Origin: Flavobacteriales bacterium
GTDB lineage: Bacteria > Bacteroidota > Bacteroidia > Flavobacteriales_D > Crocinitomicaceae
Direction of reading: 5' to 3'
Length of the DNA: 43,091 nucleotides
Assembly: GCA_947476515.1 (NCBI GenBank)
Contig: CANJQZ010000001.1
Location: 1 to 43,091, forward strand
Within the stretch, counting starts at the first letter, position 1; every line of letters begins with the position of its first letter. Made by a program: the position numbers and the translations under genes. This document shows positions 828 through 35,966 of this stretch, piece after piece. Under the pieces are notes generated by a model that did no database searches, had not been told where the DNA came from, and was given only the letters and a program-made list of their open reading frames with translations.

Positions 828-1871
828 ATGAATCCTGCTTTCGACATAAACTATAATAAATCCGTTCCATTTATTTTAGAAAAATTGAATGTTTGTATCT
901 TACTTACGACTTATCAAGCCAGTAAGTTGATCATTATTAGTGCTGAAAACCAACAATTAAGACAAACTCCCATTACATTAAAAAAGCCAATGGGAATCGC
1001 TATTGATGGAACAAAACTTGCTGTGGCTTGTATAGATGAGCTTCGTTTCTTCTCCAAGAACGAAAAAACAGCACCATTTGTAAATATGGGACATTATCAA
1101 TATGACCCAATCTATTTACAAAGAGCAACTTACCATACCAGCACATTGGATGTGCATGATATTGCCTTTGGAGATGGAATGATTTGGGGAATCAATACTT
1201 TGTTTTCTTGTATATCAGTATTTGATATTAATCATAGTTTTAAGCCAAAATGGAAACCACCATATATTTCTGAATTAGTCCCAGAAGATCGCTGTCATTT
1301 GAATGGAATGGTTATGCAGGATGGTATTCCTAAATATGTTACCGCTTTAAGTAAGGATAATGAAAAGCAGGGTTGGAGGAAAAATAAATTAAATTCCGGC
1401 GTGCTCATCGAGGTGCCTTCAGGAGATATTATTTTATCTGGATTATCAATGCCTCATTCACCAAGATACTATGAAAATGAACTTTATCTTCTTGAGTCAG
1501 GGTTAGGGCGGCTTATAAAGGTGAATCTCAAGGAGAATAAAATAGAAGTAGTTTTTGATTTCAATTGTTTCATTCGTGGATTAACATTCAATCATGAAAT
1601 TGCTTTTATTGGCAAATCTCAAATTAGAGAAACATCAACCGATTTTAATCATTTATCAATAAAAGATAACTCCAAAAATGCAGGTGTGATTTTATTTTGC
1701 ATGAAAACATATACTGTACTTGGTGAAATTAATTATACAGCTGATATTCAAGAATTATACGATGTACAAGTTATTGAAAATGCTCCTAATGCCCTTATTA
1801 TCACCAACGAAATCGAAGAATATAATGATATCATCACTTATCCGGGCAATGTTTTCAAGAAAAAACAATAG
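828..1871 (+). CDS. conserved hypothetical protein, TIGR03032-like family
   Basis: 347 aa. The ATG lies 4 nt after the terminator T-run. Segments LLTTYQASKL, EDRCHLNGM and GLSMPHSPRYY match my recollection of the TIGR03032 family. Function unknown. Confidence 0.6.
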   Translation: MNPAFDINYNKSVPFILEKLNVCILLTTYQASKLIIISAENQQLRQTPITLKKPMGIAIDGTKLAVACIDELRFFSKNEKTAPFVNMGHYQYDPIYLQRATYHTSTLDVHDIAFGDGMIWGINTLFSCISVFDINHSFKPKWKPPYISELVPEDRCHLNGMVMQDGIPKYVTALSKDNEKQGWRKNKLNSGVLIEVPSGDIILSGLSMPHSPRYYENELYLLESGLGRLIKVNLKENKIEVVFDFNCFIRGLTFNHEIAFIGKSQIRETSTDFNHLSIKDNSKNAGVILFCMKTYTVLGEINYTADIQELYDVQVIENAPNALIITNEIEEYNDIITYPGNVFKKKQ

Positions 1872-1943: not shown

Positions 1944-2990
1944 CTATACTACAGATTGAACTAAAATAAAACTATGATGAATTCCTTCAAATTGATTATA
2001 AATCAATATAATCTTTGGAATCGAAGAGACATCACCTTCAATGCCTTTATGATGAATTCGGCCCTTTAAAAGTTGGGTTGCAAAATATAAAGCAAACGCA
2101 GAACTTGTACGATATTCACCTACGAAATTTTTATAATAAACATACTCCTTTTTGCTTGAAAAAAATGATTTTAAAAGTGTATACCATGAATCAAATTGAA
2201 CATCGCCATTATTCCCTAAAATTAGCAAATCAATATCTTCAGTTTTAAGATCATTTTCAAACAGAAATTGATTTAATAAATACTCCAAATCAATTTCATT
2301 TGGATAATTGATTTGCTTTAAATTGATGAGCTTTGCCAGAGCATTATTGGCATCATTTGATACAATAAACATAGTCGATCCTTCACCACAAATAGAACCT
2401 TTTGTTTGACTTGTTATTAATTTATTATTGTCAATATAATCCGATTTATATCTGCCTGCTATCAAATCTATATTATAATTATAATTTGATATTTCTTCAA
2501 CTGCACCAAGCAATAAGGCAGTCTTATTTGTCGCACCCTCCAAAAACATCATCGCATCCAATATTGCATTTTCAAAAGCTAGTGGGCCATTTACATGTGT
2601 GACATTATATCCAGTATTTTTGGACATCAATGCTAATTGTCCCGCCAGAGCATTAGGAGTACTTTGAACAAAATGAGTAGGTGTTAATACCCCTTCATCA
2701 TATTCTATAATTTGATTTAAGAAATTAATACAATTTTCAAGACCTCCATTAGCAGTTCCAATCACAATACCGTTTAATTTTTCATGTCTTTCAATTAAGG
2801 GAAGAGCCGCTCCTATTCCCATTCTTACCGCTTTTCCCATTCTTCGCAATAAAGAGGCCGGAATCATTTCTGAATAACTTGGTTCAATTACAGATAAAAT
2901 ATTTTTTGAATAAATTTTATAATTCCCATTAATAAATTCATCTGTATGAGTGACTTGAGGTGATATGGAGTATACATCCTTTAAATACAT
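1944..2990 (-). CDS. ketosynthase-like protein lacking catalytic residues (chain-length-factor-like KS partner)
   Basis: KS-fold protein that keeps the pre-active-site motif FVQSTPNALAGQLAL. It has no ACSS-type Cys and no HGT/GHT His motifs. The track start at 3014 is TTG; the ATG at 2990 (MYLKDVYSISPQ) aligns with paralogue 13394-14317 (MYYIHKVASITHQ). Confidence 0.75.
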   Translation of the reverse strand: MYLKDVYSISPQVTHTDEFINGNYKIYSKNILSVIEPSYSEMIPASLLRRMGKAVRMGIGAALPLIERHEKLNGIVIGTANGGLENCINFLNQIIEYDEGVLTPTHFVQSTPNALAGQLALMSKNTGYNVTHVNGPLAFENAILDAMMFLEGATNKTALLLGAVEEISNYNYNIDLIAGRYKSDYIDNNKLITSQTKGSICGEGSTMFIVSNDANNALAKLINLKQINYPNEIDLEYLLNQFLFENDLKTEDIDLLILGNNGDVQFDSWYTLLKSFFSSKKEYVYYKNFVGEYRTSSAFALYFATQLLKGRIHHKGIEGDVSSIPKIILIYNQFEGIHHSFILVQSVV

Positions 2991-4174
2991 TTTGAAAATA
3001 TTAAAGAAGTACAATTACCACCAAATCCAAATGAATTTGACATAACATAATTTAAATTTTTCTTAACGAATTCAAAAATTGGTCTAGATTGATGTGTATT
3101 AATAGGTGATTCGCATCTTAAGCTTTGATAAAGCTCATCATTATTCAAACTCAAAATGGCCAATATAGATTCTAAAGATCCAGCAGCAGCTAAAGTGTGA
3201 CCCGTGTATGATTTAGTAGAGTTGTAAGGCGGAACATTTTCAAAAACCGTATTTAAAGCTAAGGTTTCCGTAAGATCGTTATTTAATGTTCCTGTTCCAT
3301 GTGCATTGATATAATCTATTAAATCTGGTGTAATTCCAGTCATTTGCAAGGCAAGTTCCATTGATAAAATTGGTCCAATGGCATTTTCTGAAATGGTGGA
3401 GGGATGAAAAGCATCATTTGAATTACCAAAACCATTAAGTTCAGCAATTTTGAACTTATTTCTTGCTGCATCTTCAGACTCAAGAACCAAATAAGCTGCC
3501 CCTTCGCCTAAACTCAGACCATTTCTATTTTCATCGAATGGTCTACAAGCCTGATCACTAAGAATCATTAATGAATTGAATCCATTGACAGTATATTTTG
3601 CAATACTATCCGCTCCTCCAACGACAACTCGATCTGCCCTACCTGTTTGTATTAAGCGCGCACCGAGATATATTGCATTAGCCGATGATGAACAAGCTGT
3701 ATTAATGGTATCAACAATTCCTCCAATCTCAAACATTTCAGTAATGCGCCAGGTATGATCTGAGCCTTCATAAGATCTGGCATAATTTGATGGAATATCT
3801 TTTAGATTAGCATCTGAATAAAGTTCATCTGTATAGCACATTCCGCCAACAGTACTAGATGAAATGAAAGCTGTTTTGTCAGATTTTAATACCTCTAGTG
3901 AAATACCAGCCTGTATAATGGCTTCATTGAAAGCATTAAGTGCAAGAACTGTTGTCCTAGTAAAGTCTTTCTTGGATGCAACATTATTGCGTTGTCTTAA
4001 TTGTTCATCACTAAATGGGACTTCGCCAAACACCAGATTTTGAGCATATTTGGATTGAAAATATTTAGCTGTTTGGATGCCGCATTTTCCAGATCTCAAA
4101 GAATTCAAATGTTCGTCAACCGTTGAACCGATTGAAGATATTGCACCCATACCTGTGATGAATACCTTCTGCAT
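2981..4174 (-). CDS. beta-ketoacyl-ACP synthase (FabF/FabB-type, Cys-His-His)
   Basis: Active-site Cys in INTACSSSANAI. His motifs NAHGTGT and TGHTLAAAG. C-terminal SNSFGFGG. Confidence 0.9.
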   Translation of the reverse strand: MQKVFITGMGAISSIGSTVDEHLNSLRSGKCGIQTAKYFQSKYAQNLVFGEVPFSDEQLRQRNNVASKKDFTRTTVLALNAFNEAIIQAGISLEVLKSDKTAFISSSTVGGMCYTDELYSDANLKDIPSNYARSYEGSDHTWRITEMFEIGGIVDTINTACSSSANAIYLGARLIQTGRADRVVVGGADSIAKYTVNGFNSLMILSDQACRPFDENRNGLSLGEGAAYLVLESEDAARNKFKIAELNGFGNSNDAFHPSTISENAIGPILSMELALQMTGITPDLIDYINAHGTGTLNNDLTETLALNTVFENVPPYNSTKSYTGHTLAAAGSLESILAILSLNNDELYQSLRCESPINTHQSRPIFEFVKKNLNYVMSNSFGFGGNCTSLIFSKCI

Positions 4175-4178
4175 TTTG

Positions 4179-4442
4179 CTATTTAGTTCTATTTAAAAGA
4201 ATGTAATCTACAATTGTATTTACATCAATTAAAATCTGTCTACCCTCTGTTGGATTATTAATTTTAATTCCATATTCACGATCTAACAAAACAATTAATT
4301 CAACAGAATCGATCGAATCCAAACCCAAATCTCCATCAAATAACGGTTCATCGTCCTTTATTTTATCTGGAGTAATATCCAACAAATTTAAATATGTTAT
4401 TAAATGACCTTTAAAATCATTTTTAACTTCCTCTCTATCCAT
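4179..4442 (-). CDS. acyl carrier protein
   Basis: 87 aa, acidic. Phosphopantetheine-Ser motif LGLDSIDSVEL. Confidence 0.9.
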   Translation of the reverse strand: MDREEVKNDFKGHLITYLNLLDITPDKIKDDEPLFDGDLGLDSIDSVELIVLLDREYGIKINNPTEGRQILIDVNTIVDYILLNRTK

Positions 4443-4449
4443 ATTATTC

Positions 4450-5736
4450 TTAAATATAATTTTGTTTTCTTAATTTAATAAATGTAAAGAATTGACATCC
4501 AAATATAAACATTAAAAGATATATTAGTGTTCCTGACAATTCTTTCCATTCACCATTCTTTAAGAAAAGTGTATAATACCCTTCTATGCACCAATGTAAA
4601 GGAGAAATCATTCCAATATTTTGCATGTATTCAGGCATAATAAATGAAGGTACCCAAATACCACCAATTGCTGCAAATATAATTATTGATATAGCTCCAA
4701 AACCACCAGCTTGTTCTTGTGTTTTAGCATATACACCAATTAACAAGGAATAGCTAATTGCAGCATATGCTGATAAAATCGAAATTACAAAAAGTGCTAA
4801 AATATTGGAAGGCATCTTTAAGTCAGGTAACCCTAAATGCGGAAATACGAACATACCGATACAGAACATGACAGTCAATTGACTTAAGGAAACGAATAAA
4901 TATACAATCACCTTACTCCAAATCGTTAATAAAAATGCACTTGGAATAGTCTGTAAGCGCACAAAACTCCCTGACAATCTTTCTTTTACAACATTCCCAC
5001 CCAAAGAAATAACCATGAAGAACATTGCAAAAAGAGACCATGCAGGAACATTATGTTGCGAGGAATTTGGAACTAGTTCACTCGTTCCATTTGATGCAGG
5101 AACTGAATTTATAGTTATATTTTGTTTGCCTAATTCTTTTTGAATGTGTTTAGGAATATTATCATACCCTAAATCTGCAAATAATTGTTGCAGCATTATT
5201 CTACTTTCAATTCCAATAAGAACCGTATTAATCCCAGACAATATTGAAATTCTAAAGTTTTCTTGAAGAATAGGATCGAAATAAAAGTCCAAATTATTAT
5301 TATTCATTAATTTAGAACTTTGCAAACTTTGAGAACTATCAATAACACCAAATTCAGTAAGCATTAAATTTGATATTTTCGCAGCATTTTGTCCAATTTT
5401 TTTTGAAAAATTTTCAGGAATAAGAATTGCAATTAATTTATCTCTATATAATGTTTGCTTCTTAATTTCTGATTTCATTAATGTGTTTGAAATTTCAATA
5501 TTAAAACTACCAGACTTAATAAGATTATCGATAAGAGTATCTCCAAGATTACCATCATCCTTATTTACGATCAGCATCTCGATCTTGTTTTCATTCACCA
5601 ATTTGAAGGCACTATCTTGTACTACTGTAATGATAAAAACTAATAATAGAGGCATCACAAACATCAACAATAATCCAACTTTATCACTCAAAAGCAATAA
5701 AATTTCTTTAACTAATGATACAAATAATTTATTCAT
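4450..5736 (-). CDS. ABC-2 type transporter permease
   Basis: 428 aa with an N-terminal TM helix, a long extracytoplasmic segment and a C-terminal bundle of hydrophobic helices. Its ATG overlaps the ATPase stop (TAATG). Confidence 0.75.
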   Translation of the reverse strand: MNKLFVSLVKEILLLLSDKVGLLLMFVMPLLLVFIITVVQDSAFKLVNENKIEMLIVNKDDGNLGDTLIDNLIKSGSFNIEISNTLMKSEIKKQTLYRDKLIAILIPENFSKKIGQNAAKISNLMLTEFGVIDSSQSLQSSKLMNNNNLDFYFDPILQENFRISILSGINTVLIGIESRIMLQQLFADLGYDNIPKHIQKELGKQNITINSVPASNGTSELVPNSSQHNVPAWSLFAMFFMVISLGGNVVKERLSGSFVRLQTIPSAFLLTIWSKVIVYLFVSLSQLTVMFCIGMFVFPHLGLPDLKMPSNILALFVISILSAYAAISYSLLIGVYAKTQEQAGGFGAISIIIFAAIGGIWVPSFIMPEYMQNIGMISPLHWCIEGYYTLFLKNGEWKELSGTLIYLLMFIFGCQFFTFIKLRKQNYI

Positions 5737-6482
5737 TAATCCCTAAGTTCTTTACCTGTTAAATTTATCATCAGTTCTTCTAAATTGGCTGCATTATTTA
5801 TTTTTATTAACTCAGAAACAGAATCTAATGCAATCACCTTACCATTGTCCATCAAAGCCACCCGCGAACAAAAATCTTCCGCTTCTTTCAGATGGTGAGA
5901 GGTATAAATAATCGTTGTACCTTTTTTATTTAATTCTTCGAGATAATTTATTATGGTAAGTTTACTATGAATATCAACGCCAACAGTAGGTTCATCTAAA
6001 AAAACTATTTCTGGAGAATGAATCAACCCAATTGCCAGGTTTAAACGCCTTTTCATTCCACCGGAAAAGGATTTTACTTTATTATCAGCAACACTGGTTA
6101 AGCCTAAAATTTCCAAAAGATTTACCGTTTGTTCTTTTAAACTTATAGAGGACATACCATAAACTCCACCAAAATAATATAAATTTTGTTTCGCTGTCAA
6201 TTCAGAATAAAAAGCAAAATCTTGTGGGACAAATCCAACTTGATTCAATTTTTCTTTAATGTTTTTCTTTTGATCATCGAAAGAATATTCAATCGTACCT
6301 GATGAAGCTTTTAAGATATTACAGAGCAAAGAAATCAAGGTAGTTTTTCCAGCGCCATTTGGACCAAATATTCCAAATTTCTCACCTTTAAAAATGGTTA
6401 AATTTATATTGTCGAGACTTGGTTTCTCAGCCTTTCCGTAGTATTTAAATAAGGAAACTGTAGTAATGATTGGACTTTCCAT
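5736..6482 (-). CDS. ABC transporter ATP-binding protein
   Basis: Walker A GPNGAGKTT, signature SGGMKRRL, Walker B IVFLDEPT, H-loop TSHH. Confidence 0.92.
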   Translation of the reverse strand: MESPIITTVSLFKYYGKAEKPSLDNINLTIFKGEKFGIFGPNGAGKTTLISLLCNILKASSGTIEYSFDDQKKNIKEKLNQVGFVPQDFAFYSELTAKQNLYYFGGVYGMSSISLKEQTVNLLEILGLTSVADNKVKSFSGGMKRRLNLAIGLIHSPEIVFLDEPTVGVDIHSKLTIINYLEELNKKGTTIIYTSHHLKEAEDFCSRVALMDNGKVIALDSVSELIKINNAANLEELMINLTGKELRD

Positions 6483-6484
6483 CT

Positions 6485-7495
6485 TTATTTAATCACAATT
6501 TTAGAAAGTTGTTTAAAAGCCTCTTTTTCAATATTACTTATTTCATTTAAAATAGAAGCGCTATCATTATAATCCGTTTGAGAAGTCAAGCGTCCTTTAT
6601 AAATACCTGACATTTGCAAAGCAGAATCCCTCCACAAATCACCTGATTTGGTTAATTGATCTGAAATATTAAGCAGTTTATCATTTCCTAATATTTCACT
6701 TGCCTCATCCAAAAATGCAGCATATAAGAATCGAAAACCACCGCCTCCAGTTCCAATTTCTTCTTGCATGCGAACAATTTGACCTAAATACAATGCTGCT
6801 TGACGATCTCCTAATTTATCTCTCCAGCCTCTAATTTTATTTGCAGTATAATTAATTCCTTTAACTCCAGCTACTCCTCCTGGTATATGCAACATATCTC
6901 TACAATTTCTTTTAATCCCTTTATTAATTGCTTTCCTCAAACAATCTTCAGAAATATCACCGATCGTTTTCGGGAAATACATTTGTCCTTTCGGCGCTAA
7001 GGCGCCTTGAGCAAAACGAACTTTTTCTAATTCTTCAGGGAAAAGTGTCGTAGTAGTTTCCATTACAGGATCACTTATTAGGTATTTACCATCTTCTTGA
7101 CCGAAAACAATTAGATTGTGTGCATTAAAATGAAATCGATATGTTTTTGGGAAATAATTCAAATGAAAAACACCAACTTGACAACCAACAGGAATCCCTT
7201 GATTCAATTTTTCATCTAATAAATATTGAGCTTCTAACTTAGATTTGAATTTTTTTCTTTCCACTTTTATATTAAGTGACCTACAGGTTCTTTTAAAAAT
7301 TGCTCCTGGCATGGTTCGAAATGAAATTGCAGGACCATTATTCACTTTCATAAAAGGAATATGAATGTAAAATAAACCTGAACCTAATCCAAAGGCTAAA
7401 GGCTCCGTTATGAATTCAACACCATTATGTTGGAGTAGACTCACTGTCACGCCATTTTCACAATGAGCCGTTTGAATATGTTTAAAATTATCCAT
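6485..7495 (-). CDS. BtrH-N-domain protein (papain/C39-like fold, putative ACP-dependent acyltransferase)
   Basis: N-terminus HIQTAHC12ENGV...EPLAFGLGSGLFY matches my recollection of the BtrH N-terminal domain consensus. That consensus has a Cys nucleophile in an HCE context. Length (336 aa) fits the BtrH_N plus C-terminal DUF architecture. Confidence 0.6.
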   Translation of the reverse strand: MDNFKHIQTAHCENGVTVSLLQHNGVEFITEPLAFGLGSGLFYIHIPFMKVNNGPAISFRTMPGAIFKRTCRSLNIKVERKKFKSKLEAQYLLDEKLNQGIPVGCQVGVFHLNYFPKTYRFHFNAHNLIVFGQEDGKYLISDPVMETTTTLFPEELEKVRFAQGALAPKGQMYFPKTIGDISEDCLRKAINKGIKRNCRDMLHIPGGVAGVKGINYTANKIRGWRDKLGDRQAALYLGQIVRMQEEIGTGGGGFRFLYAAFLDEASEILGNDKLLNISDQLTKSGDLWRDSALQMSGIYKGRLTSQTDYNDSASILNEISNIEKEAFKQLSKIVIK

Positions 7496-7893
7496 TAAAA
7501 ACCAGGTGTTTTTAATTCCATCAATGTTATTCCGAATGCATCTGCATACTTTTGCAGTTTCCGGACATTTAGTCTTTTGAAATTTTTTGGAGATTTATGC
7601 CTTTTAATTTGCCATATCCAAAATCCAGTATATCCTGACAAAACTGAATAATCCATTAATTTCAATTCCATATAATAATGAATTGGACTTGATTGACCCG
7701 AAATAAAGAGACTTTTAGCTTCTTCGATCCTATTTTCAATATCTTTCCATGCAGAATTTAAGGCATCTGTTTTAACCTCCCAACCTGAACTCAATTCGGC
7801 CTGATATTTACCATTATCATTTTTAACATAACATACCTCTCTTGTGAAATTGACTAAATCACTATTATCCTGAGGAAGATCAGATTTTTTCAT
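7495..7893 (-). CDS. hypothetical protein with C-terminal HTH-like segment
   Basis: The track start at 7899 is TTG. The ATG at 7893 overlaps the darB stop (TGATG). The C-terminus NVRKLQKYADAFGITLMELK resembles the recognition-helix end of XRE-type HTH domains. No other motif recognised. Confidence 0.45.
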   Translation of the reverse strand: MKKSDLPQDNSDLVNFTREVCYVKNDNGKYQAELSSGWEVKTDALNSAWKDIENRIEEAKSLFISGQSSPIHYYMELKLMDYSVLSGYTGFWIWQIKRHKSPKNFKRLNVRKLQKYADAFGITLMELKTPGF

Positions 7894-9041
7894 CAACAAA
7901 CAGTAAACATTGCAAACACATATGTAAATCTAGCACTTTCTGGAACAGCTATCAATATTGTTTCGCCAATTTTTAATTTATTGCTTTTCCATAAATCATC
8001 AATCATCATATAGACGGACGCAGCCCCAACATTTCCACATTTATCAAGATTGGTAAACCATTTTTCTTTAACGATTTCCATACCATTTGCTTTCAGTTCA
8101 TCATAAATTTTATCTTCAAAAAAATAACTTGACATATGAGGGATGAAATGATCTATTTGATTGACATGAATTCCCTTATTTTTAATAATAATCTCCAAAT
8201 TTTTAAATCCTAGTTTAACGATATTATCCCCCAAGAGTTTGACATCTTGTTTGATACTAAAAATAGATTTCTCCATTATTTCTGAGGGTGAAAAATCACT
8301 AAAACCTTTCAATGTTCCATTGTTAGATTTCTCTGCTCCCATATACATACAAGTCTCCATTTGATTTGCAAAAGAGAAACCTTCTATCCAATCTATTCTC
8401 AATGAAATATCATGCTCATTTTTCTTGTCTTCGATTAAAAATGCTGCTGCACCATCAGAAAGCATCCATCTTAAAAAGTCTTTTTCAAAAGCAATATAGG
8501 GGTCTTTTTCTAATTCAATTTGTTTTTGCACCTCTAATTCAAACTGCTCTGATCTCATTACCCTTGATAAGCGTTCTGAACCAGTAGAAACCGTTTTTTT
8601 TGATGCTCCAGTGCGTACGGACATGAAATTATATTTCAAAGCATGCATTCCGGAGCAACAGTTACCTGAAGGTGAAACAACTTCAATTGCATTAGAGTCA
8701 GGCAGCCAACCATGAACCATAACACCATGTGATGGCATTAATTGATCAGGAGAAGATGTTCCACAACTTAACAAATCAATTTCTTTTATTTCATTAGAAT
8801 CTTTTTTAAATAGACTCTTTATTGCAAGTGAAGTCAATTCTGCATTTGTATGCGTTGATTTTCCATCTTTAGTTATTGCATAATAACGACTCTTTATTCC
8901 GTTATTGCGTAATACTATTCTTCTAGATTTTGAGGCATGATCATTAACTAATCCTAAATAATCTTCCATTTCATCATTTGAAATTGGATTGTTAGGAAAA
9001 AAAACTGCACTTCTAGTTATAAAAACTTCTTTTAAACTCAT
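7893..9041 (-). CDS. darB: KAS III-like dialkylresorcinol condensing enzyme DarB
   Basis: FabH-like Cys-His-Asn set: SGNCCSGMHAL, HFIPHMSS, CGNVGAAS. Its start overlaps the darA stop (ATGA). Confidence 0.75.
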   Translation of the reverse strand: MSLKEVFITRSAVFFPNNPISNDEMEDYLGLVNDHASKSRRIVLRNNGIKSRYYAITKDGKSTHTNAELTSLAIKSLFKKDSNEIKEIDLLSCGTSSPDQLMPSHGVMVHGWLPDSNAIEVVSPSGNCCSGMHALKYNFMSVRTGASKKTVSTGSERLSRVMRSEQFELEVQKQIELEKDPYIAFEKDFLRWMLSDGAAAFLIEDKKNEHDISLRIDWIEGFSFANQMETCMYMGAEKSNNGTLKGFSDFSPSEIMEKSIFSIKQDVKLLGDNIVKLGFKNLEIIIKNKGIHVNQIDHFIPHMSSYFFEDKIYDELKANGMEIVKEKWFTNLDKCGNVGAASVYMMIDDLWKSNKLKIGETILIAVPESARFTYVFAMFTVC

Positions 9042-9949
9042 TTTTTAATCAATTCTATACTATAAAAATACGCTTTATTCTTAGTTATTCTATTCTGAGT
9101 GAAGGGTCTAATCAAAACATTAAAAACCAGTAAAACTATTGGAGCAAAAACGAAGAGCGCAATGAGTAGATAATAATTGAACAAATTAACCCATATCCTT
9201 CGTTTACGAGGCGTTGATCCTTTTTTAATTATTTGATTTGCCCAAATTTTAAATATCTTTTTCGCTCTACTTTCAATAAACAAAATGTTAGTATTAATGT
9301 TCACTCGATTGGAGGAAAGAACTTCTTTCTGAAGTTCCTCCAAGCTATTATTTTCAAGTGATTTTTGAATTATTTCGCCAAATAATGAAGCTTCAAGAAT
9401 ATCTTTATTACTTATTCCAGGAAGTGGAAAAATACCAAATTTTCTTTCTTTTTTTCCCGTCAACATCCAATGTAAAATTGATACTGCACTCAATAAATTA
9501 GGGCTGCGATCTACAAATGGAATATTGCCAACTAGAACACCACCTGCATCTTTAATTAGATATTTTACGCTTTCCTGAGAATTCAACCACATGTTTCTTG
9601 CCCCTATTACAGTTACTATCGGAGTGTTATTTATAATTTTTTTAAATTTATCGTTTTTCAAAAGTGCTGTTGCAGGCAATGATGGGGATAAAAACCAAGG
9701 TTGATATCCGAATATTATCAAATCATAATTTTCCCTTTTAAACATAATTTCATTCAATTCTATCTCTTTTTCCAAGACAGTTTCGGGCATAACATTAAAA
9801 AATTCATGTGAAATCCATGGAAATGAAAACTTGGTTTTAGGTTGAACAGAAATAACTTCAATTTCTCCCTTAATTGTTGAAACTAAATTTGATAATAAAT
9901 CAGATAACTGACCTGATTGGGAATAGGATATTACTAATATTTGTTTCAT
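9038..9949 (-). CDS. darA: dialkylresorcinol condensing enzyme DarA
   Basis: Flavodoxin-like N-terminus MKQILVISYSQSGQL and a C-terminal TM helix (LLIALFVFAPIVLLVF), immediately upstream of the KAS III-like gene. This matches the darA-darB pairing known from flexirubin and Pseudomonas DAR loci. Confidence 0.65.
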   Translation of the reverse strand: MKQILVISYSQSGQLSDLLSNLVSTIKGEIEVISVQPKTKFSFPWISHEFFNVMPETVLEKEIELNEIMFKRENYDLIIFGYQPWFLSPSLPATALLKNDKFKKIINNTPIVTVIGARNMWLNSQESVKYLIKDAGGVLVGNIPFVDRSPNLLSAVSILHWMLTGKKERKFGIFPLPGISNKDILEASLFGEIIQKSLENNSLEELQKEVLSSNRVNINTNILFIESRAKKIFKIWANQIIKKGSTPRKRRIWVNLFNYYLLIALFVFAPIVLLVFNVLIRPFTQNRITKNKAYFYSIELIKK

Positions 9950-9953
9950 TCAA

Positions 9954-10397
9954 TTAAAGATTCAAGTGTATAGATGTTTTTGAATAAGAAATAATTGCAT
10001 TTTTAACTTCTAAATTCAAGGAAGCATAGTGTTTTTTAATCCAAATCACATCTTCAGAGATATTGCCTTGATATTTCAAAATTTTTGGAGCATTTTCTTG
10101 AATAATAAGTCGTAAAAAACGATATTCAGTGTTCTTAGAATTTAATCCTATTTCATTTTCCAATTGGATGCGACCTTGTTTAAAAATCTCCAGTTTTTCC
10201 TTCGGAGTATTTTGAAATCCGGCTTTCTTCATAACTAATGCACCTTTATAAGCTTTTTTATCACTGCCTTCTTTTTCAGCATCTAGTATCTTAAGCATAG
10301 CATTAACAGAAGTTAAATCTTTAGAAGAAATAACTTTAAAATATTCCTCTTTAGAAAATGATAGCGCTAATAATAAATAGATTATAAGACATTTCAT
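9954..10397 (-). CDS. hypothetical secreted protein (first gene of the darAB operon)
   Basis: 147 aa with an N-terminal signal peptide MKCLIIYLLLALSFS. No recognisable catalytic motif. Confidence 0.5.
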   Translation of the reverse strand: MKCLIIYLLLALSFSKEEYFKVISSKDLTSVNAMLKILDAEKEGSDKKAYKGALVMKKAGFQNTPKEKLEIFKQGRIQLENEIGLNSKNTEYRFLRLIIQENAPKILKYQGNISEDVIWIKKHYASLNLEVKNAIISYSKTSIHLNL

Positions 10398-15500: not shown

Positions 15501-15752
15501 TTATTTATTACTTTCAATAAAATCTGCCATCGAATCAATCGAATAAAAAATCTCTCTTGCTAATGAAGGATCATCAATTTTGATGCTGTATTCACTATCC
15601 AGTAATACAATAAACTCTAAAGCATCAATCGAATCAAGTCCTAAGCCTTCATCACCAAATAAGGGAGCATCATTTTTAATGTCTGCAGTTGTTAAATCTT
15701 CTAGATTTAACTGCTCAATTATTTGAGCTTTTAATTGTTCTTTTAATTCCAT
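15501..15752 (-). CDS. acyl carrier protein
   Basis: 83 aa with LGLDSIDALEF motif. Confidence 0.9.
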   Translation of the reverse strand: MELKEQLKAQIIEQLNLEDLTTADIKNDAPLFGDEGLGLDSIDALEFIVLLDSEYSIKIDDPSLAREIFYSIDSMADFIESNK

Positions 15753-17860: not shown

Positions 17861-18285
17861 CCGAGCACAATTTTCATTTGACATTTTATCAAATCTTGAG
17901 TTGCATTTCGAGCTACCCCTTCTATTAGATGAATATTTTCAAATGTATTCACAATTTGAACCTGTGTTTCTATCAAGGCATTAGTGGCCACTTCATTGAA
18001 AACTTCCAATTTTGTAATTGCCCCTATAAATCCTAGACGAGGTTCACTATCAACTTCTAAACTACTTAAATAACCAAAACCTGCGGCACATGTTTGTGCA
18101 ATATTTTCAACAATTGCAGCCTCAGATAAAATATTATTCTGAATAAATATATTATCATTTTCCACTTTAAAAGAACTTAAAAACCCTTTTTCGTCCGCTT
18201 TGAGTAAAGAGTCAATCATGATAAACGGTTCCCTTTGGGGAATATATTTTTTAATATTTTCCTTTTCAACTAGCATAATAATCAT
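17857..18285 (-). CDS. hotdog-fold dehydratase (FabZ/ApeI-like)
   Basis: 142 aa. N-terminal YIPQREPFIMIDSL matches the LPHRxPFLLVD-type opening of FabZ-like and aryl-polyene dehydratases. Confidence 0.65.
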   Translation of the reverse strand: MIIMLVEKENIKKYIPQREPFIMIDSLLKADEKGFLSSFKVENDNIFIQNNILSEAAIVENIAQTCAAGFGYLSSLEVDSEPRLGFIGAITKLEVFNEVATNALIETQVQIVNTFENIHLIEGVARNATQDLIKCQMKIVLG

Positions 18286-19150
18286 AAAAATTAAACCATT
18301 GTGTTGGATTAGAAGTCACCATTTCTTCTAGTTTTAACACATAAGACTCTGCTATTTCTTCTGGTGAATTGTAATCCAAATGTGGTGTTGTTGCACTTAA
18401 ATTATAATGAGTTCCTTGTCCTTTTACTGCAAAAACAAAACTTATAGGGACTTTAAATTTGTATGCCATAATAAAAGGTCCTGCCGGAAATTTTGCAATT
18501 CCTTTTAAAAATTTCATACTGAAATATTTTTGATCATGCAGCAGTCTATCAGCATGGAGTGCAATGATTTCGTTTCTTTTCAATGCTTGATGAATTAACA
18601 CTAAATGCGACATATCATTTTTTAAAGGAATTAAATTATAATGGTTAACATCTGTAGATTTAGAAAGATAAGATTTTATTTTTTCTACCTCAGCATCTAG
18701 CATAAGAATATTAATTTTAGAAGTGATTCTTTCGCCAATTAAATTACCCGCATTTTCCCAATTACCCACATGCCCTGAAAACAAAAAACTTCCTTTTCCC
18801 AAATCGTACATATCCTTCAATGCCTGTTCATTTTCGAAATTATGGGAGTAATGAATATGCTTTTTAGTTTTTAAAGCTATTCGATCGATAAGAACTCTAC
18901 CAAAAATATTGAAGTTTTTAATGGTATTAATTATTGCCTTTCCCTTTGACAATTCAAAACCAGTTTGATAAAACTTAATTAATGCATTTCTATTTTTCCT
19001 TGAAAAAAGGACAAAATAAGTTGCCACCCAAATACAAAAGAAATATGAAATCCTAATTCCTAAAAAATTTATACAAAAAACAAAAAATTTATAACCTAAA
19101 AGGGAACCTTTTGTTTTACCATCCCACTTTTGATTTACGGTTTTAGACAT
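18266..19150 (-). CDS. LpxL/HtrB-family lysophospholipid (lipid A-type) acyltransferase
   Basis: N-terminal TM helix. HX4(D/E) motif in the LpxL-typical form GHVGNWEN. Confidence 0.75.
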   Translation of the reverse strand: MSKTVNQKWDGKTKGSLLGYKFFVFCINFLGIRISYFFCIWVATYFVLFSRKNRNALIKFYQTGFELSKGKAIINTIKNFNIFGRVLIDRIALKTKKHIHYSHNFENEQALKDMYDLGKGSFLFSGHVGNWENAGNLIGERITSKINILMLDAEVEKIKSYLSKSTDVNHYNLIPLKNDMSHLVLIHQALKRNEIIALHADRLLHDQKYFSMKFLKGIAKFPAGPFIMAYKFKVPISFVFAVKGQGTHYNLSATTPHLDYNSPEEIAESYVLKLEEMVTSNPTQWFNFYDYYAS

Positions 19151-19397
19151 TCATTAATTTTTGTTCCACTAGGTTGTAAAAATCGTTAAAGGTTGCAACG
19201 GTTTTGAAATCTTCAGCTGTCGGTTTAAATCCTAAATTTTCTTCAATCAAGACTACTAAATCAACATAATCAAGACTATCTAAATCAAGTGTATCTCTCA
19301 AATTTCCATCATCTTCAATGGTTTCAATATCTACTTCAAATTCTTCTGAAAGGAACTTTTTAGTAACACTTATAATCTCTGATCTCTCCATTTTCAT
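19143..19397 (-). CDS. acyl carrier protein
   Basis: 84 aa with LDLDSLDYVDL motif. Confidence 0.9.
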   Translation of the reverse strand: MKMERSEIISVTKKFLSEEFEVDIETIEDDGNLRDTLDLDSLDYVDLVVLIEENLGFKPTAEDFKTVATFNDFYNLVEQKLMNV

Positions 19398-19404
19398 AGG
19401 GTAA

Positions 19405-20628
19405 TTAAGGTTTATATTTTTTTATTATCAACGAAGAATTAGTTCCTCCAAAACCAAATGAATTGGAAAGAAAACAATCAATCTTTTTTTCATTAAACTG
19501 AGGAACTACATTTATTTTTCGAGAATCTTCGTCCGGATTTTCAAAGTTAATATTTGGGGCAATAAAATCATTTTTCATCATCAATAACGAATAAACTATT
19601 TCACTTGCTCCTGCCATCCAGCATTCATGTCCTGTCATTCCTTTGGTCGAACTAACAGGGACTTTCGAGCCAAATACATCAGCGATAACCTGTGCTTCTG
19701 TTTTATCACCTACTATAGTTGATGTAGCATGAGCATTGATATAATCAATTTCTGAAGGATTTATTCCTGCATGTTTTAAGGACATATTCAAAGATCTAAA
19801 CTGTCCATCAAAATTTGGATTTGAAATATGGTCTCCATTGGAAGAGAAGCCATAACCTACAATTTCACCATAGATAGGCGCATTGCGTTTTAAGGCTGAC
19901 TCTAATGACTCAATAATTACTGTTGCTGCTCCTCCGGAGGGTACCAATCCATCGCGATCACGATCAAAAGGACGACTCGCTTTTTGAGGTTGATCTTGAT
20001 TCATGGAAAACGCTCCTAATCCATCAAAACTGCCCATTGCAAAAATGTTTATTTCTTGGGCTCCACCGCAAATCACTCTTTCTTGTAGACCTTGTTTTAT
20101 GAGCAGATAACCCATTCCTATTGAATGAGATCCAGAAGCACATGCAGCTGACAAAGTGATATTTATTCCTTTTAATTTATAAATTGTAGATAGATTCATG
20201 TTGATTGTGCAATTCATATTTTGAAAAATATCACCACTTCCAATCAAGGTTGTATCTTTTTTTTCTCTTACTTTATCGATTGTTTCAATAACTGCTCCAG
20301 CAGTAGAATCATTTCCAAAGATGATTCCGGTTTCATTTTTCTCCAGATAATCTACATCCAAATTTGAATTTTCAAGCGCCTCTTTGGTTGACATATAGGC
20401 AAACATTGCTGGCTGATGCATACCCATGCGTTCTCTACGAGAAAGAAATGGTTTTAAATCAGGATCTTTTACAAATCCTGTTAAACTCGATCTATATCCA
20501 AATTCTTTTCTCATTGGATCATAAATAATACCACTATTCCCTTTCATAAGAGCGTCTAAAACTTCATTTAAATTTTCTCCGATGCAAGAATAGATACCAA
20601 TGCCAGTTATTACGACCCTATGTTCCAT
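19405..20628 (-). CDS. beta-ketoacyl-ACP synthase (FabB/FabF-like, Cys-His-His), no adjacent degenerate partner
   Basis: LSAACASGSHSI, NAHATSTIVGD, MTGHECWMAG, SNSFGFGGTN. Confidence 0.9.
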   Translation of the reverse strand: MEHRVVITGIGIYSCIGENLNEVLDALMKGNSGIIYDPMRKEFGYRSSLTGFVKDPDLKPFLSRRERMGMHQPAMFAYMSTKEALENSNLDVDYLEKNETGIIFGNDSTAGAVIETIDKVREKKDTTLIGSGDIFQNMNCTINMNLSTIYKLKGINITLSAACASGSHSIGMGYLLIKQGLQERVICGGAQEINIFAMGSFDGLGAFSMNQDQPQKASRPFDRDRDGLVPSGGAATVIIESLESALKRNAPIYGEIVGYGFSSNGDHISNPNFDGQFRSLNMSLKHAGINPSEIDYINAHATSTIVGDKTEAQVIADVFGSKVPVSSTKGMTGHECWMAGASEIVYSLLMMKNDFIAPNINFENPDEDSRKINVVPQFNEKKIDCFLSNSFGFGGTNSSLIIKKYKP

Positions 20629-32943: not shown

Positions 32944-34197
32944 TTAAATAAATACTATTTTTTCTGGTTTTCGTAAATTCTTTTTATAAACTTGAGCTTG
33001 AATTATCTCTAATTCGTTAAATGTAAAAATAGGAATTACTTTCAACCTTGATTGACATTTTTCTATTATTATTTTATAAATATTGGTATCCAATATTTCT
33101 TTTTGTAAAAGAATCGTGATTTGATCATTTTGAAAATTATCCTTCGAAATAATGATTTTATAACAAGCTACTTCCTCAATATTATCAAAGATATCAAAAA
33201 GTGTTTGAGGAAAAATGGTGGTCCCTTTATATTTAATCATTTGATTTTTTCGACCAACAATAGGGCCCAATCTAGGAGCACTATTACCGCAAGAGCATTT
33301 TTGCATAAATCTTTTAGCAATATCCCCAGTTTTATACCGTAATAATGGAGTTCCGGTGGTTGCTATAGTGGTTATTACAATTTCACCTTCCTCTCCATCT
33401 CCAACTTCATTTCCATGTTCATCAACTACTTCAAGAAAGAGCAATTTTTCATTTAAATGGCAACCTTGTTGCGCATGGCATTCTGTAAATGCCGTTGCCA
33501 TTTCTGTACAAGCATAGGTCGAAAAAAGATTTACATCCCAATCATTTGTGATGCGTTTACCGAGAACATTAAGATGAAATGCATCATCACGGATTGATTC
33601 ACCAATACAAACAATTGATTCTACAGAAGTATCATGTAAATTAATTCCATGTTTCTTTGCGAAATCAATCAAAATCAAAATAAAACTAGGCACCGCAATT
33701 AATACTCTAGGCTTGTTATTTATTATCGATGACCACTGAAGCTCTGGTAAGCCAGGCCCGATTCTAATAATTCCAGCTTTCAATTCCTGAACTCCCAAAT
33801 AATAGGCAATTCCTGCCATAAATTGACGGTCAATTGTGGTCATTAATTGAACTAAATCACCTTCTCGTACACCAGCCAAGGATAGCGAATCTCTTTCATT
33901 TAATGCTAAGCGTTTTAAGTCAGATCTACTTAAATAAACTGTGACAGGATCTCCCATTGTTCCTGAAGTAGTAACAATATCAGCGATTTCAGTCATTGGA
34001 ACTGATAAAAAATCGAGATTGTTTTTAGCTATATCATCTTTTAAAGTGAAAGGTATGTTGCTCCATTCATGAAAACTTAAATCTTCTTGTTTAAAGTTAA
34101 TGCCACTTAATGATTTTTTGTAGTACTTTGAATTATGCAATACATAAGTCAATGTTTGCATCACTTCTTTGGGAATTAATTGTTGATTAGGCATCAT
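32944..34197 (-). CDS. PaaK-like adenylate-forming enzyme (phenylacetate-CoA ligase / F390 synthetase family)
   Basis: 417 aa, the short ANL format. AMP-binding core TTSGTMGDPV. Its start overlaps the stop of the C45 gene (ATGA). Confidence 0.7.
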   Translation of the reverse strand: MMPNQQLIPKEVMQTLTYVLHNSKYYKKSLSGINFKQEDLSFHEWSNIPFTLKDDIAKNNLDFLSVPMTEIADIVTTSGTMGDPVTVYLSRSDLKRLALNERDSLSLAGVREGDLVQLMTTIDRQFMAGIAYYLGVQELKAGIIRIGPGLPELQWSSIINNKPRVLIAVPSFILILIDFAKKHGINLHDTSVESIVCIGESIRDDAFHLNVLGKRITNDWDVNLFSTYACTEMATAFTECHAQQGCHLNEKLLFLEVVDEHGNEVGDGEEGEIVITTIATTGTPLLRYKTGDIAKRFMQKCSCGNSAPRLGPIVGRKNQMIKYKGTTIFPQTLFDIFDNIEEVACYKIIISKDNFQNDQITILLQKEILDTNIYKIIIEKCQSRLKVIPIFTFNELEIIQAQVYKKNLRKPEKIVFI

Positions 34198-35885
34198 TTA
34201 TTTTTAAATTGACATTCCTTTTTTAGATTTTCAAGTTCCATTTTAATTTTCAAAGAAGCTAAATTTTTAGTTAATGCATTGGCAAACATTTTATTTGCAG
34301 CACTCGAATTTCCTTTCTTTAAATAATACTTACCTAACATTTCAAATGTCACAAAAGATTCCTTATTGTTGTTGACAAATTCCTTTATTTCATGTGATGA
34401 TAACTTTAAATCAGTACCAAATAAAAGAAATTGACTGATTCGTTTTTTAGTGGCTTTAAAGGCTTTAAATTTCTTATATTCCTTAGAAAATAAAAATTCA
34501 GAAGAACTCAAACGATGCGTAATGGTTCCTTTCTTCGATTCAAATGTTTTATTTAAATCGTAACCAATAAATTCCCCTAATTGATAATTGCTTGTTGAAA
34601 TATAGAACATGGAACTTTTCGGCAAAATAATTACACTATGATGTGCAATTAACTGATTTATAGCGCGTGGATTTCCCATTCCTAAAGTATCATTCTTAAA
34701 ACCATTTTGATCTCTTAAGATGGATAAAACATTATTGAGAGAGAAAACATTGCGGGCAGATAACAACTCTCCTACTCTATTAAAACGAAACTTACTATCA
34801 CTTTCCTTAATATTTGAAATATTTACCTTGTCGTTAATAAAAGTAGCGGATTGATAATGATTGGAACAAACTAATTTACTTTGTTTAGAATCATACACAC
34901 CCAATTTGGTCGGTGATTTTTCTATTAAAACAGCTCTTTTGTCCAATGAAGAACCAATCATAAGCGTTTCAGAAACAAAAGTATGCCTCTTTTTTGCAAT
35001 AGCAACAGCTTCCTCAATTGTTGAAGCATATTGTAAAATTTCACGCGCTAAAATTGAAATTGGCATTTTTGCCCCACTTGGCAAATCAGATTTAGAGGCA
35101 TTAATTGTAACACTTAATCCCTTTTCATTCAGGCCAGATAATACGCCTGTAAATCCTGCCCATGAATAAGAAGCAAAACTAAATCCCTTTGATGGATTAA
35201 CAAACAATATCAACTTATCGTGAGCAAATTCATCTCCCACATAAAAATCAAAGTTTCTTCCAATCATCAAATTACTGTCTGCAGTCAGCTCATCTTTCAA
35301 TGCAAAAGAAGTACATCCAACAATGCTATAATCATTTAATGCATGACCAATGTCATGGGCAGCATGATAGTTTAATATTCTAGTGTATTTTGAAGCGATA
35401 TAATCATAACGACTAGAAAAATATTGAGAAATTCCATAAATTTCTTGTTGATTTTCTAAGGGTATGTTTTTTGGTAATTCAGAAATAAACAAACCTATAA
35501 ACAAGCGTAAAAATTGTTGCATAAAATTGCTAGGGACAAAATTATTTATTTGATTAACAAAAATATCCTCTTGTCTTTGAATCAATTCTTTTGATAATTC
35601 ACCATAAATAAGGCCTCTTTCATAAGGATCACCTTCGATGTACATCTCCCAAATGCCGAATTCGTTTTTTTTAAGATAATTATTTTTTAAGACATAATGA
35701 TTATCTGAAATCTTAATGCGCTTACCGATATTAAAATGCTCAACAATTGGAGGATCAATTTCTGCATTTAATATTAAATATAAGATTGCAAGGCATAATA
35801 CAAAGAATATTTGTTCTATTGAGATTAAGATGAATGTTATAACATATCTTAAAATCAAATTAACATAAAATAATACTCTACTCAT
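34194..35885 (-). CDS. membrane-anchored C45-family Ntn acyltransferase/hydrolase (acyl-CoA:6-APA acyltransferase-like)
   Basis: Gly-Cys self-processing/nucleophile context YSIVG-C200-TSFAL (Cys codon 35313-35315, track numbering). N-terminal TM helices and a C-terminal TPR-like tail. The track start at 35912 is TTG; the first ATG is at 35885. Confidence 0.65.
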   Translation of the reverse strand: MSRVLFYVNLILRYVITFILISIEQIFFVLCLAILYLILNAEIDPPIVEHFNIGKRIKISDNHYVLKNNYLKKNEFGIWEMYIEGDPYERGLIYGELSKELIQRQEDIFVNQINNFVPSNFMQQFLRLFIGLFISELPKNIPLENQQEIYGISQYFSSRYDYIASKYTRILNYHAAHDIGHALNDYSIVGCTSFALKDELTADSNLMIGRNFDFYVGDEFAHDKLILFVNPSKGFSFASYSWAGFTGVLSGLNEKGLSVTINASKSDLPSGAKMPISILAREILQYASTIEEAVAIAKKRHTFVSETLMIGSSLDKRAVLIEKSPTKLGVYDSKQSKLVCSNHYQSATFINDKVNISNIKESDSKFRFNRVGELLSARNVFSLNNVLSILRDQNGFKNDTLGMGNPRAINQLIAHHSVIILPKSSMFYISTSNYQLGEFIGYDLNKTFESKKGTITHRLSSSEFLFSKEYKKFKAFKATKKRISQFLLFGTDLKLSSHEIKEFVNNNKESFVTFEMLGKYYLKKGNSSAANKMFANALTKNLASLKIKMELENLKKECQFKNK

Positions 35886-35966
35886 CTTGTTGCAAAAATA
35901 CGCTATTAACAAAAATTCTCACTACGGTTTACTAATAAATATAATGTTCTCAGAGAAGCTATTTAA

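Follow-up and report, generated by a model that had tools for sequence, protein, structure and literature searches.

Protease-like, carrier protein-dependent transacylases of the BtrH/CtaG/CcbD class are known from several biosynthetic pathways. CtaG, an enzyme of closthioamide biosynthesis in Ruminiclostridium cellulolyticum (PDB 9QUZ), works alone, forming amide bonds between two carrier protein-bound substrates; it takes carrier protein thioesters as donors and employs a ping-pong acyl-Cys mechanism, with the catalytic triad C11/H128/D144 (PDB variants, PMC12865890). BtrH, from the butirosin pathway, and AsbE, from the petrobactin pathway, draw the acyl group from a carrier protein and hand it to a small molecule that is free in solution (PMC12865890); in both cases the acceptor is an amine and the product an amide. 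CcbD, which catalyzes the lincosamide condensation (PDB 7YN1; PDB 9DKR with the peptidyl carrier protein), acylates an amino sugar, also to an amide, and the structure solved with its carrier protein implies that members of this class dock carrier proteins directly. The same fold is found in AziU3 of the azinomycin pathway (PDB 8GS1, 7WUW), which forms a complex with AziU2 and is involved in aziridine ring formation rather than transacylation. Here, we describe a member of this fold class encoded by the gene darH in a 43,091-nt stretch of Flavobacteriales DNA (GenBank assembly GCA_947476515.1, contig CANJQZ010000001.1, positions 1 to 43,091; hereafter, the window), which has a GC content of ~31% and contains a complete flexirubin-type gene cluster. 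We lean modestly toward DarH as the best candidate for the enzyme that esterifies the polyene to the resorcinol, and the main new result of this analysis is that the product of the adjacent gene, DarG, is a constant and likely partner subunit of DarH.

Flexirubins are classic chemotaxonomic pigments of Bacteroidota. The darH gene is not new: both the name and a homology-based "acyltransferase" label already exist, for darH of Chitinophaga pinensis and in NCBIfam. The letters G and H come from the C. pinensis cluster of Schoner et al. 2014, tabulated in PMC12968099, and the counterparts in Azoarcus sp. BH72 are darD ("conserved hypothetical") and darE ("BtrH-like peptidase"). The DarH encoded in the window belongs to the same family as the NF053550 members, C. 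pinensis DarH and the BH72 darE product, with the same gene order and no differences. The darA and darB genes of C. pinensis alone yield the flexirubin resorcinol in Escherichia coli (PMC3992019); the DarAB proteins of Azoarcus likewise make resorcinol, even though in Azoarcus itself the free compound is not present and the ester pigment arcuflavin is the only form (PMC3949708). Because darAB suffice in E. coli, DarH is not needed for resorcinol formation. For the ester bond, Schoner 2014 proposed a different protein, FlxW (PMC3992019). The initial annotation of this locus, which portrayed the protein as a BtrH-like acyltransferase and a candidate for the ester bond, holds with respect to family, fold and in silico checks, although the gene had already been named and a rival enzyme already proposed.

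Family and fold of DarH

The darH gene (6485-7495, minus strand) encodes a 336-aa protein with the N-terminus MDNFKHIQTAHCENG, in which His11-Cys12-Glu13 form the Cys context that had been noted from the sequence. A Pfam search identified BtrH_N, the domain shared with BtrH and AsbE, at residues 11-143 (E 2e-48), as suspected in the initial annotation, followed by DUF4872 at residues 154-330 (E 2e-59). The protein also matches the NCBIfam equivalog NF053550 (DarH_acyl, "BtrH-related acyltransferase DarH") with 461.8 bits (E 1.2e-138; cut-off 300), with residues 3-330 aligned to positions 1-324 of the 325-position profile. It is the single copy above the cut-off in the source genome, a 2-Mb draft that is 75% complete, and its nearest relatives are found in Fluviicola and Crocinitomicaceae.

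An AlphaFold2 model of DarH was built on an alignment of 53 homologues (A1), with a mean predicted local distance difference test score (pLDDT) of 95.8 and a predicted template modeling score (pTM) of 0.92. Over its full length, the model matched CtaG (Z 24.7, 295 residues aligned, root-mean-square deviation [rmsd] 3.4 Å), AziU3 (Z 24.1) and CcbD, including the complex of the latter with the carrier protein domain (Z 22.5, 306 residues), at sequence identities of ~10% to CtaG and ~11% to CcbD. The next structural tier (Z ≤12.8) consists of C39/papain-like peptidase domains, including those of 3ERV, ComA and PCAT1 (Z 11-12.8), which align with the N-terminal half of DarH and no further. The papain-like fold is shared with these peptidases, but the full-length matches of the model point to transacylases.

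The putative catalytic residues are conserved. Among the 53 homologues, the most distant of which are 26% identical, Cys12 and His126 never vary and Asp142 hardly does; alignments A3 and A4 show no variation at any of the three positions. In the model, Cys12 starts the helix 12-23, His126 opens the strand 126-134 and Asp142 follows the strand 137-141, a placement on the predicted secondary structure that is the papain arrangement. The positions match those of the CtaG triad (C12/H126/D142 in DarH vs. C11/H128/D144 in CtaG). The papain-like Cys-His pair that had been anticipated for this protein is supported by this conservation and secondary-structure placement, as part of a putative Cys-His-Asp set within the predicted fold of the CtaG and CcbD transacylases.

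By sequence comparison with PDB entries, the relationship to CtaG is weak. A phmmer search of the PDB sequences with the whole protein returned nothing but a chance match to an antifreeze protein, and the output of the full-length profile (A1) was dominated by designed coiled coils, which were dismissed as spurious matches to the helical C-domain; a profile limited to the N-terminal domain (A4) was needed to reveal CtaG, AziU3 and 3ERV. In that comparison, the His126 and Asp142 columns align, weakly by sequence alone (E 0.22), with SEQRES positions 134 and 150 of CtaG, which correspond to H128 and D144 after a six-residue tag, the His-Asp spacing being 16 residues in both proteins. This weak match agrees with the structural one. 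The Cys12 column aligns, also weakly, with the Cys of the C39-like peptidase 3ERV. Taken from the modeled structure, the assignment of DarH to the BtrH/CtaG/CcbD transacylase fold class appears nearly certain, and the placement of DarH beside CtaG, CcbD and AziU3, with a matching triad, goes beyond the published record that we found.

DarG as a probable partner of DarH

The small protein that the initial annotation placed between darB and the BtrH-like gene is indeed encoded there (7495-7893, minus strand), but it is no bystander: the 132-aa product is DarG (NCBIfam NF053545, 176 bits; cut-off 170), the likely partner of DarH. The association of the two proteins, which we consider probable, was traced through 80 DarH loci across Bacteroidota that were collected in a scan with alignment A3, which returned only members of this phylum. 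In 78 of these, darG is located directly upstream of darH, and the other two loci start at a contig edge. The order of the pair is kept when it lies ahead of darAB (L048 and L064) and when there is no darAB within 10 kb (L015, L028, L057 and L066), and in two genomes (G082 and G034), the pair stands alone, far from darB and flxA. The genes for the ATP-binding cassette (ABC) transporter, acyl carrier protein (ACP) and ketosynthase (KS) that commonly accompany darH are absent from several DarH loci with room for them. A DarG-like gene also overlaps the start of a metagenomic darH, the product of which is 38% identical. In one locus (L033), a halogenase gene separates darB from darG, and in another (L043), one separates darA from darB, so the darG-darH junction is kept while other junctions are not. 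One locus (L034) has two DarG-DarH pairs and no darAB match in 21 kb; one of the pairs is accompanied by ABC genes on the opposite strand, and the other is followed by genes for an ACP, a KS and a KS partner.

The two proteins also occur as natural fusions. In P0160 (482 aa), the whole of DarG (HMM positions 1-131, E 1.9e-28; 31% BLAST identity) precedes DarH, whereas in P0145, P0226 and L093:434-1684, only the ~60 N-terminal DarG residues, and in P0228 the first 103, are found ahead of the DarH body. The L093 fusion is one of two tandem paralogues (416 and 421 aa; L093:434-2975), each composed of the ~60 N-terminal DarG residues and a DarH body, which are followed by a dienelactone-hydrolase-like alpha/beta hydrolase. 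A word-based search for longer DarG-containing proteins found none, a negative of little weight, the known fusions being only ~31% identical to the query.

Structure prediction for the pair yielded a complex with an ipSAE of 0.87 (0.87, 0.84 and 0.88 in the individual runs), whereas the best of three controls reached 0.00. The ipSAE is a model confidence, not a measurement, and in a benchmark that is rough, since our own alignments were used, that mark is attained by 58 complexes out of a solved set of 80 and by 2 pairs out of a mismatched set of 110. At least 93% of the contacts are common to the runs, and the pLDDT of the partner is at least 87. The predicted interface on DarG involves residues 14-57 and 81-90, the part that is retained in the fusions, and holds 8 of the 18 invariant DarG residues (Y24, Y32, W40, A46, A50, W51, M82 and D83). 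On DarH, contacts are predicted for residues 8-10, 114-122 and 144-146, all close in sequence to Cys12, His126 and Asp142, and for a conserved stretch in the helical domain, E-E-x-G-T-G-G-x-G-F-R. When DarG was modeled alone, its N-terminus was poorly ordered (pLDDT 54-63 over residues 1-40). From these models, the N-terminal ~60 residues of DarG are predicted to be the DarH-binding module.

Among the described proteins of this fold, the AziU3/AziU2 complex provides a precedent for a heteromeric enzyme. DarG was considered as an AziU2 analogue, and this was rejected: no AziU2 chain is present among the structural matches of DarG, so the two look unrelated, and the predicted complex probably does not reflect memorization of the AziU2/AziU3 structure. 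CtaG works alone, in contrast to the predicted dependence of DarH on DarG. No DarG-like partner is known for BtrH or AsbE; the protein that acts together with BtrH, namely, BtrG, is a gamma-glutamyl cyclotransferase.

The remainder of DarG invites a different interpretation. Residues 64-134 resemble about 50 XRE-type, five-helix lambda-repressor-like domains (Z 5.7-8.8, rmsd ~2-3.5 Å; Foldseek E 0.02-0.3), with the best matches extending over ~65 residues (Z 7-8.8, rmsd ~2-2.5 Å), a Z range that the tool itself calls middling. Combined with the similarity of the N-terminal half of DarH to C39/papain peptidases (Z up to 12.8), this putative helix-turn-helix (HTH) fold could be taken to indicate a regulatory module, in which DarG would regulate by binding DNA, and DarH, acting as a peptidase or hydrolase, would control DarG or process another protein. 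Such a scenario appears very improbable. The full-length transacylase matches of DarH (Z 22-25) are far stronger than the peptidase matches, and in four of the five fusions, the N-terminal module of DarG is kept but the HTH domain is wholly or largely missing, indicating that DNA binding is not the conserved feature. Furthermore, a Pfam search with DarG at E up to 0.01 returned no family and no HTH model, and XRE-like domains can also have a structural function within enzymes, of which HppE, HEPD and MPnS are among the structural matches of DarG.

The partnership of DarG and DarH, as manifested in the fusions and in the predicted complex, likewise goes beyond the published record that we found. 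No signal sequence was seen in either protein, and the nucleophile is at residue 12 of DarH; we predict that DarH acts in the cytoplasm, in complex with DarG, as a papain-like transacylase of the BtrH/CtaG/CcbD class with a Cys-His-Asp triad.

Distribution of DarH, DarB, FlxA and FlxW

To compare DarH with the markers of the two branches of the pathway, an even sample of 300 high-quality Bacteroidota genomes, together with the source genome of the window (G000), was profiled with four queries. DarB and FlxA are both above the cut-off in 14 genomes, including G000, and DarH is above the cut-off in all 14, whereas none of the four genomes with FlxA but without DarB (G074, G078, G090 and G278) has DarH. 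Among the 300 Bacteroidota, DarH above the cut-off was found only in genomes with both DarB and FlxA. DarH is thus located at the intersection of both branches and behaves as a coupling enzyme should. One genome (G193) encodes a DarB-family protein, with FlxA, DarH and FlxW not found.

FlxW (34194-35912, minus strand; NF040521, 212 bits) is a C45-family acyltransferase/hydrolase of the N-terminal nucleophile (Ntn) type. An alternative to DarH as the ester-forming enzyme is that FlxW, or else an LpxL- or LPLAT-type acyltransferase, forms the ester, with DarG and DarH being accessory. The C45 enzymes are bona fide acyltransferases, and FlxW has the published proposal in its favor. LpxL-type enzymes acylate hydroxyl groups with acyl-ACP as the donor, making this option chemically plausible, and the LpxL-type acyl-ACP O-acyltransferase gene of the cluster (18266-19150, minus strand; Pfam Lip_A_acyltrans) is encoded right after an ACP. 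The distribution of FlxW, however, tracks the polyene marker FlxA and not DarB or the resorcinol: FlxW is present in three of the four FlxA-positive genomes without DarB (G078, G090 and G278) and in 13 of the 14 genomes with both markers, but was not detected in G001, where DarB, DarH and FlxA are all present. In G034, the FlxW homologue (C1:1105044-1106729) contains an in-frame TAA stop, whereas DarB, DarH and FlxA are intact. In addition, the gene lists for the arcuflavin clusters of Azoarcus include neither an Ntn nor a C45 protein, and FlxW adjoins the starter-unit coenzyme A (CoA) ligase FlxY, a location that fits starter loading better than ester formation. Ester formation by FlxW or the LpxL/LPLAT-type enzymes is therefore, in our assessment, clearly unlikely, and the comparative evidence, which extends the published record that we found, favors DarH over FlxW for the coupling step.

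Outside Bacteroidota, where the distribution was taken from papers rather than from our own genome sample, the beta-proteobacteria Azoarcus, Dechloromonas, Variovorax and Sideroxydans, with clusters for resorcinols and xanthomonadin-like polyenes, all display the order darA-darB-hypothetical-BtrH-like, and the cluster tables also list "lipid A biosynthesis acyltransferase" or generic acyltransferases. The initial annotation had named, as an observation that would count against it, the common presence of homologues next to darAB in organisms that make only free dialkylresorcinols. In the genomes sampled, no DarH was seen to adjoin a DarB-family gene except in flexirubin-type contexts, and Pseudomonas chlororaphis, which secretes free resorcinol, has only darABC and the regulators darSR. 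A reported exception, strain TSM-5, described as flexirubin-positive without darG and darH (PMC12968099), was rejected as a counterexample: the claim relies only on a KOH color test, with no extract absorbing near 450 nm, and the homology calls are loose, the "darA" of that paper being annotated as a 3-oxoacyl-ACP reductase.

These data also bear on the possibility that DarG and DarH act in the resorcinol branch, either moving fatty-acyl, beta-ketoacyl or enoyl units between the ACP of the fatty acid synthase and the ACP of the dar operon (4179-4442), or releasing or proofreading ACP-bound intermediates for DarB. In 70 of the 80 loci, darH and darB are no more than 10 kb apart, and in 59, an ACP gene follows darH; CtaG, the nearest structural match, transfers acyl groups between two carrier proteins, and the acyl-Cys chemistry of the family would allow hydrolysis as well. 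Nevertheless, we regard this role as fairly unlikely, given that darAB alone yield the correct resorcinol in E. coli and that the pair is absent from the free-resorcinol Pseudomonas. Moreover, in G082 and G034, the pair is far not only from darAB but from any ACP or KS, and in Sideroxydans, polyene genes come right after the DarG-DarH-type pair, without an intervening dar ACP or KS.

Several more distant relatives were set aside. The DarB-family genes of G193 and G226 (L004:9989-11896 and L006:4942-6825), which encode ketosynthases of 628-641 aa, were rejected as darAB clusters, being fusions with heme-oxygenase-like domains in unrelated contexts. The extension in G193 is a heme-oxygenase-like "iron-containing redox enzyme" domain, and the gene adjoins those for a DUF6999 protein and a MarR regulator, with no darA, darG or darH beside it; fusions of this type may belong to a different resorcinol or cyclohexanedione pathway. 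The DarH-like paralogues of G226, G139 and G270 (a second copy in the latter) are below the cut-off (161-185 bits) and were rejected as well; those of G226 and G270 are found in unrelated contexts without DarG, and the contig of G139 is too short to tell. A DarH-like protein with 31% identity is encoded in an aryl-polyene-type cluster (L009:159-4895), along with a fused KS-chain-length-factor protein (767 aa) that is followed by TMEM234-like, LolA and ApeI-like genes; no DarG-like sequence was seen upstream of the DarH-like gene in this locus. BtrH-like transacylases may thus serve polyene clusters without resorcinols, too.

The flexirubin cluster and the proposed coupling step

The dar operon in the window is encoded entirely on the minus strand, in the order hypothetical-darA-darB-darG-darH-ABC ATPase-permease-ACP-KS-KS partner. 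Direct reading of the junctions reproduces the arrangement reported in the initial annotation, with neighboring genes overlapping or separated by no more than 7 nt. The operon opens with a gene for a conserved hypothetical protein of 147 aa (9954-10397; no Pfam or NCBIfam match), which precedes darA in 59 of the 80 loci, as judged by BLAST, and is separated from it by a 4-nt gap; this recurrence marks it as a conserved part of the resorcinol module. The darA gene (9038-9949) overlaps darB by 4 nt (ATGA) and would encode the dialkylresorcinol aromatase; although this is a well-known enzyme, no Pfam or NCBIfam model matched at E up to 0.01, and the identity is presumed from the position of the gene and its BLAST-detected conservation before darB (63 of 80 loci). 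Then follow darB (7893-9041), encoding the StlD/DarB-family ketosynthase that builds the dialkylresorcinol ring (NF053539, 615 bits; cut-off 550), and darG and darH, with 1-nt overlaps at both junctions (TGATG between darB and darG, TAATG between darG and darH). Downstream of darH, after a 2-nt gap, lie the genes for the ATPase (5736-6482; Pfam ABC_tran) and permease (4450-5736; Pfam ABC2_membrane_3) of an ABC-2 transporter, which overlap by 1 nt (TAATG) and are common but not universal after darH (67 and 64 of the 80 loci, respectively). The ACP gene (4179-4442; Pfam PP-binding) comes after a 7-nt gap and is followed, after another 4 nt, by the KS gene (2981-4174; Pfam ketoacyl-synt; near darH in 48 of 80 loci) and by that of a Cys-less KS partner (1944-2990, or 3014 for the longest open reading frame; Pfam Ketoacyl-synt_2; 45 of 80 loci). 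The TTG start at 3014 is probably wrong, as the ATG at 2990 gives the conserved N-terminus MYLKD; with this start, the two KS genes overlap by 10 nt. Just beyond the cluster, a DUF4915 protein (E 3e-98) is encoded on the opposite strand (828-1871, plus strand).

For the polyene branch, the window encodes FlxA, a tyrosine ammonia-lyase (NF053541, 806 bits), FlxY, a CoA ligase (NF053551), three additional KS sets, two additional ACPs, a ketoreductase, a dehydratase, the LpxL-type acyltransferase, FlxW, LolA2, a halogenase, a GT2-DUF2062 protein and an MMPL-LPLAT-methyltransferase fusion. Altogether, Pfam identifies three ACP genes within the cluster. Of the two in the polyene branch, both with PP-binding matches and on the minus strand, the one at 19143-19397, located between a KS (19405-20628) and the LpxL-type acyltransferase, is a candidate carrier of the acyl donor for DarH, with the one at 15501-15752 as an alternative candidate.

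In the reaction that we propose for DarH, the finished aryl-polyenoyl chain would be presented as a thioester on a polyene-branch ACP and accepted by Cys12, giving an acyl-enzyme, in the ping-pong manner demonstrated for CtaG. Free dialkylresorcinol, made by DarA and DarB, would then enter the cleft, where its phenolic hydroxyl would attack the acyl-enzyme to yield the flexirubin ester. The N-terminal hairpin and helix of DarG are predicted to dock across the cleft between the two DarH domains, beside the catalytic residues, and DarG probably helps to form the site for the acceptor or for the carrier protein. The ester would be passed on to the products of the export genes, namely, the ABC-2 transporter, LolA2 and the MMPL protein. 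The sequence and structure comparisons show the domain content, the fold class, the conservation of the catalytic residues, the linkage and fusion of DarG with DarH and the distribution among genomes; which donor and acceptor are used, that an ester is formed and what DarG contributes are inferred from them. The transfer from a carrier protein to a free acceptor is the logic of BtrH and AsbE, with a phenol in place of the amine, whereas CtaG joins two carrier-bound substrates and CcbD, too, produces an amide instead of the ester proposed for DarH.

Several observations weigh against this assignment. The characterized transacylases of the class, BtrH, AsbE, CcbD and CtaG, all form amides, not phenol esters, and AziU3 demonstrates that a protein with the same fold need not be a transacylase. 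The phyletic pattern of DarH is shared by DarG and, largely, by the neighboring ABC, ACP and KS genes, and hence implies a role specific to resorcinol-polyene hybrids rather than esterification as such. The genome sample is small, with DarH in ~9 genera, and related genomes are not independent. FlxW is the enzyme named in the published proposal, and the cluster encodes acyl-ACP O-acyltransferases of the LpxL and LPLAT types. Finally, as the initial annotation had supposed, an experimental assignment is lacking from the literature searched, in which we found no paper that tests the function of DarH.

With these points taken into account, we tentatively advance, at somewhat short of even confidence, a more specific proposal, under which DarG-DarH is a two-subunit phenol O-acyltransferase, fused into a single chain in some lineages. 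It would be both the first ester-forming and the first obligately heteromeric member of the CtaG/BtrH/CcbD class, and the missing coupling enzyme of all resorcinol-polyene hybrid pigments, that is, the flexirubins of Bacteroidota and the arcuflavin-type pigments of beta-proteobacteria. Under this proposal, the structural subunit would derive from a co-opted XRE-like protein, the N-terminal 60 residues of which complete the active-site cleft.

Since 2014, the step that joins the two halves of flexirubins has had only a speculative assignment, to FlxW; the best candidate is now DarG-DarH. If this assignment is correct, the recently recognized class of protease-like, carrier protein-dependent ligases would be extended from amide to ester formation, and its members could depend on a small partner subunit. 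Such a result would bear on the annotation of thousands of genomes and on the engineering of acyl transfer onto phenols.

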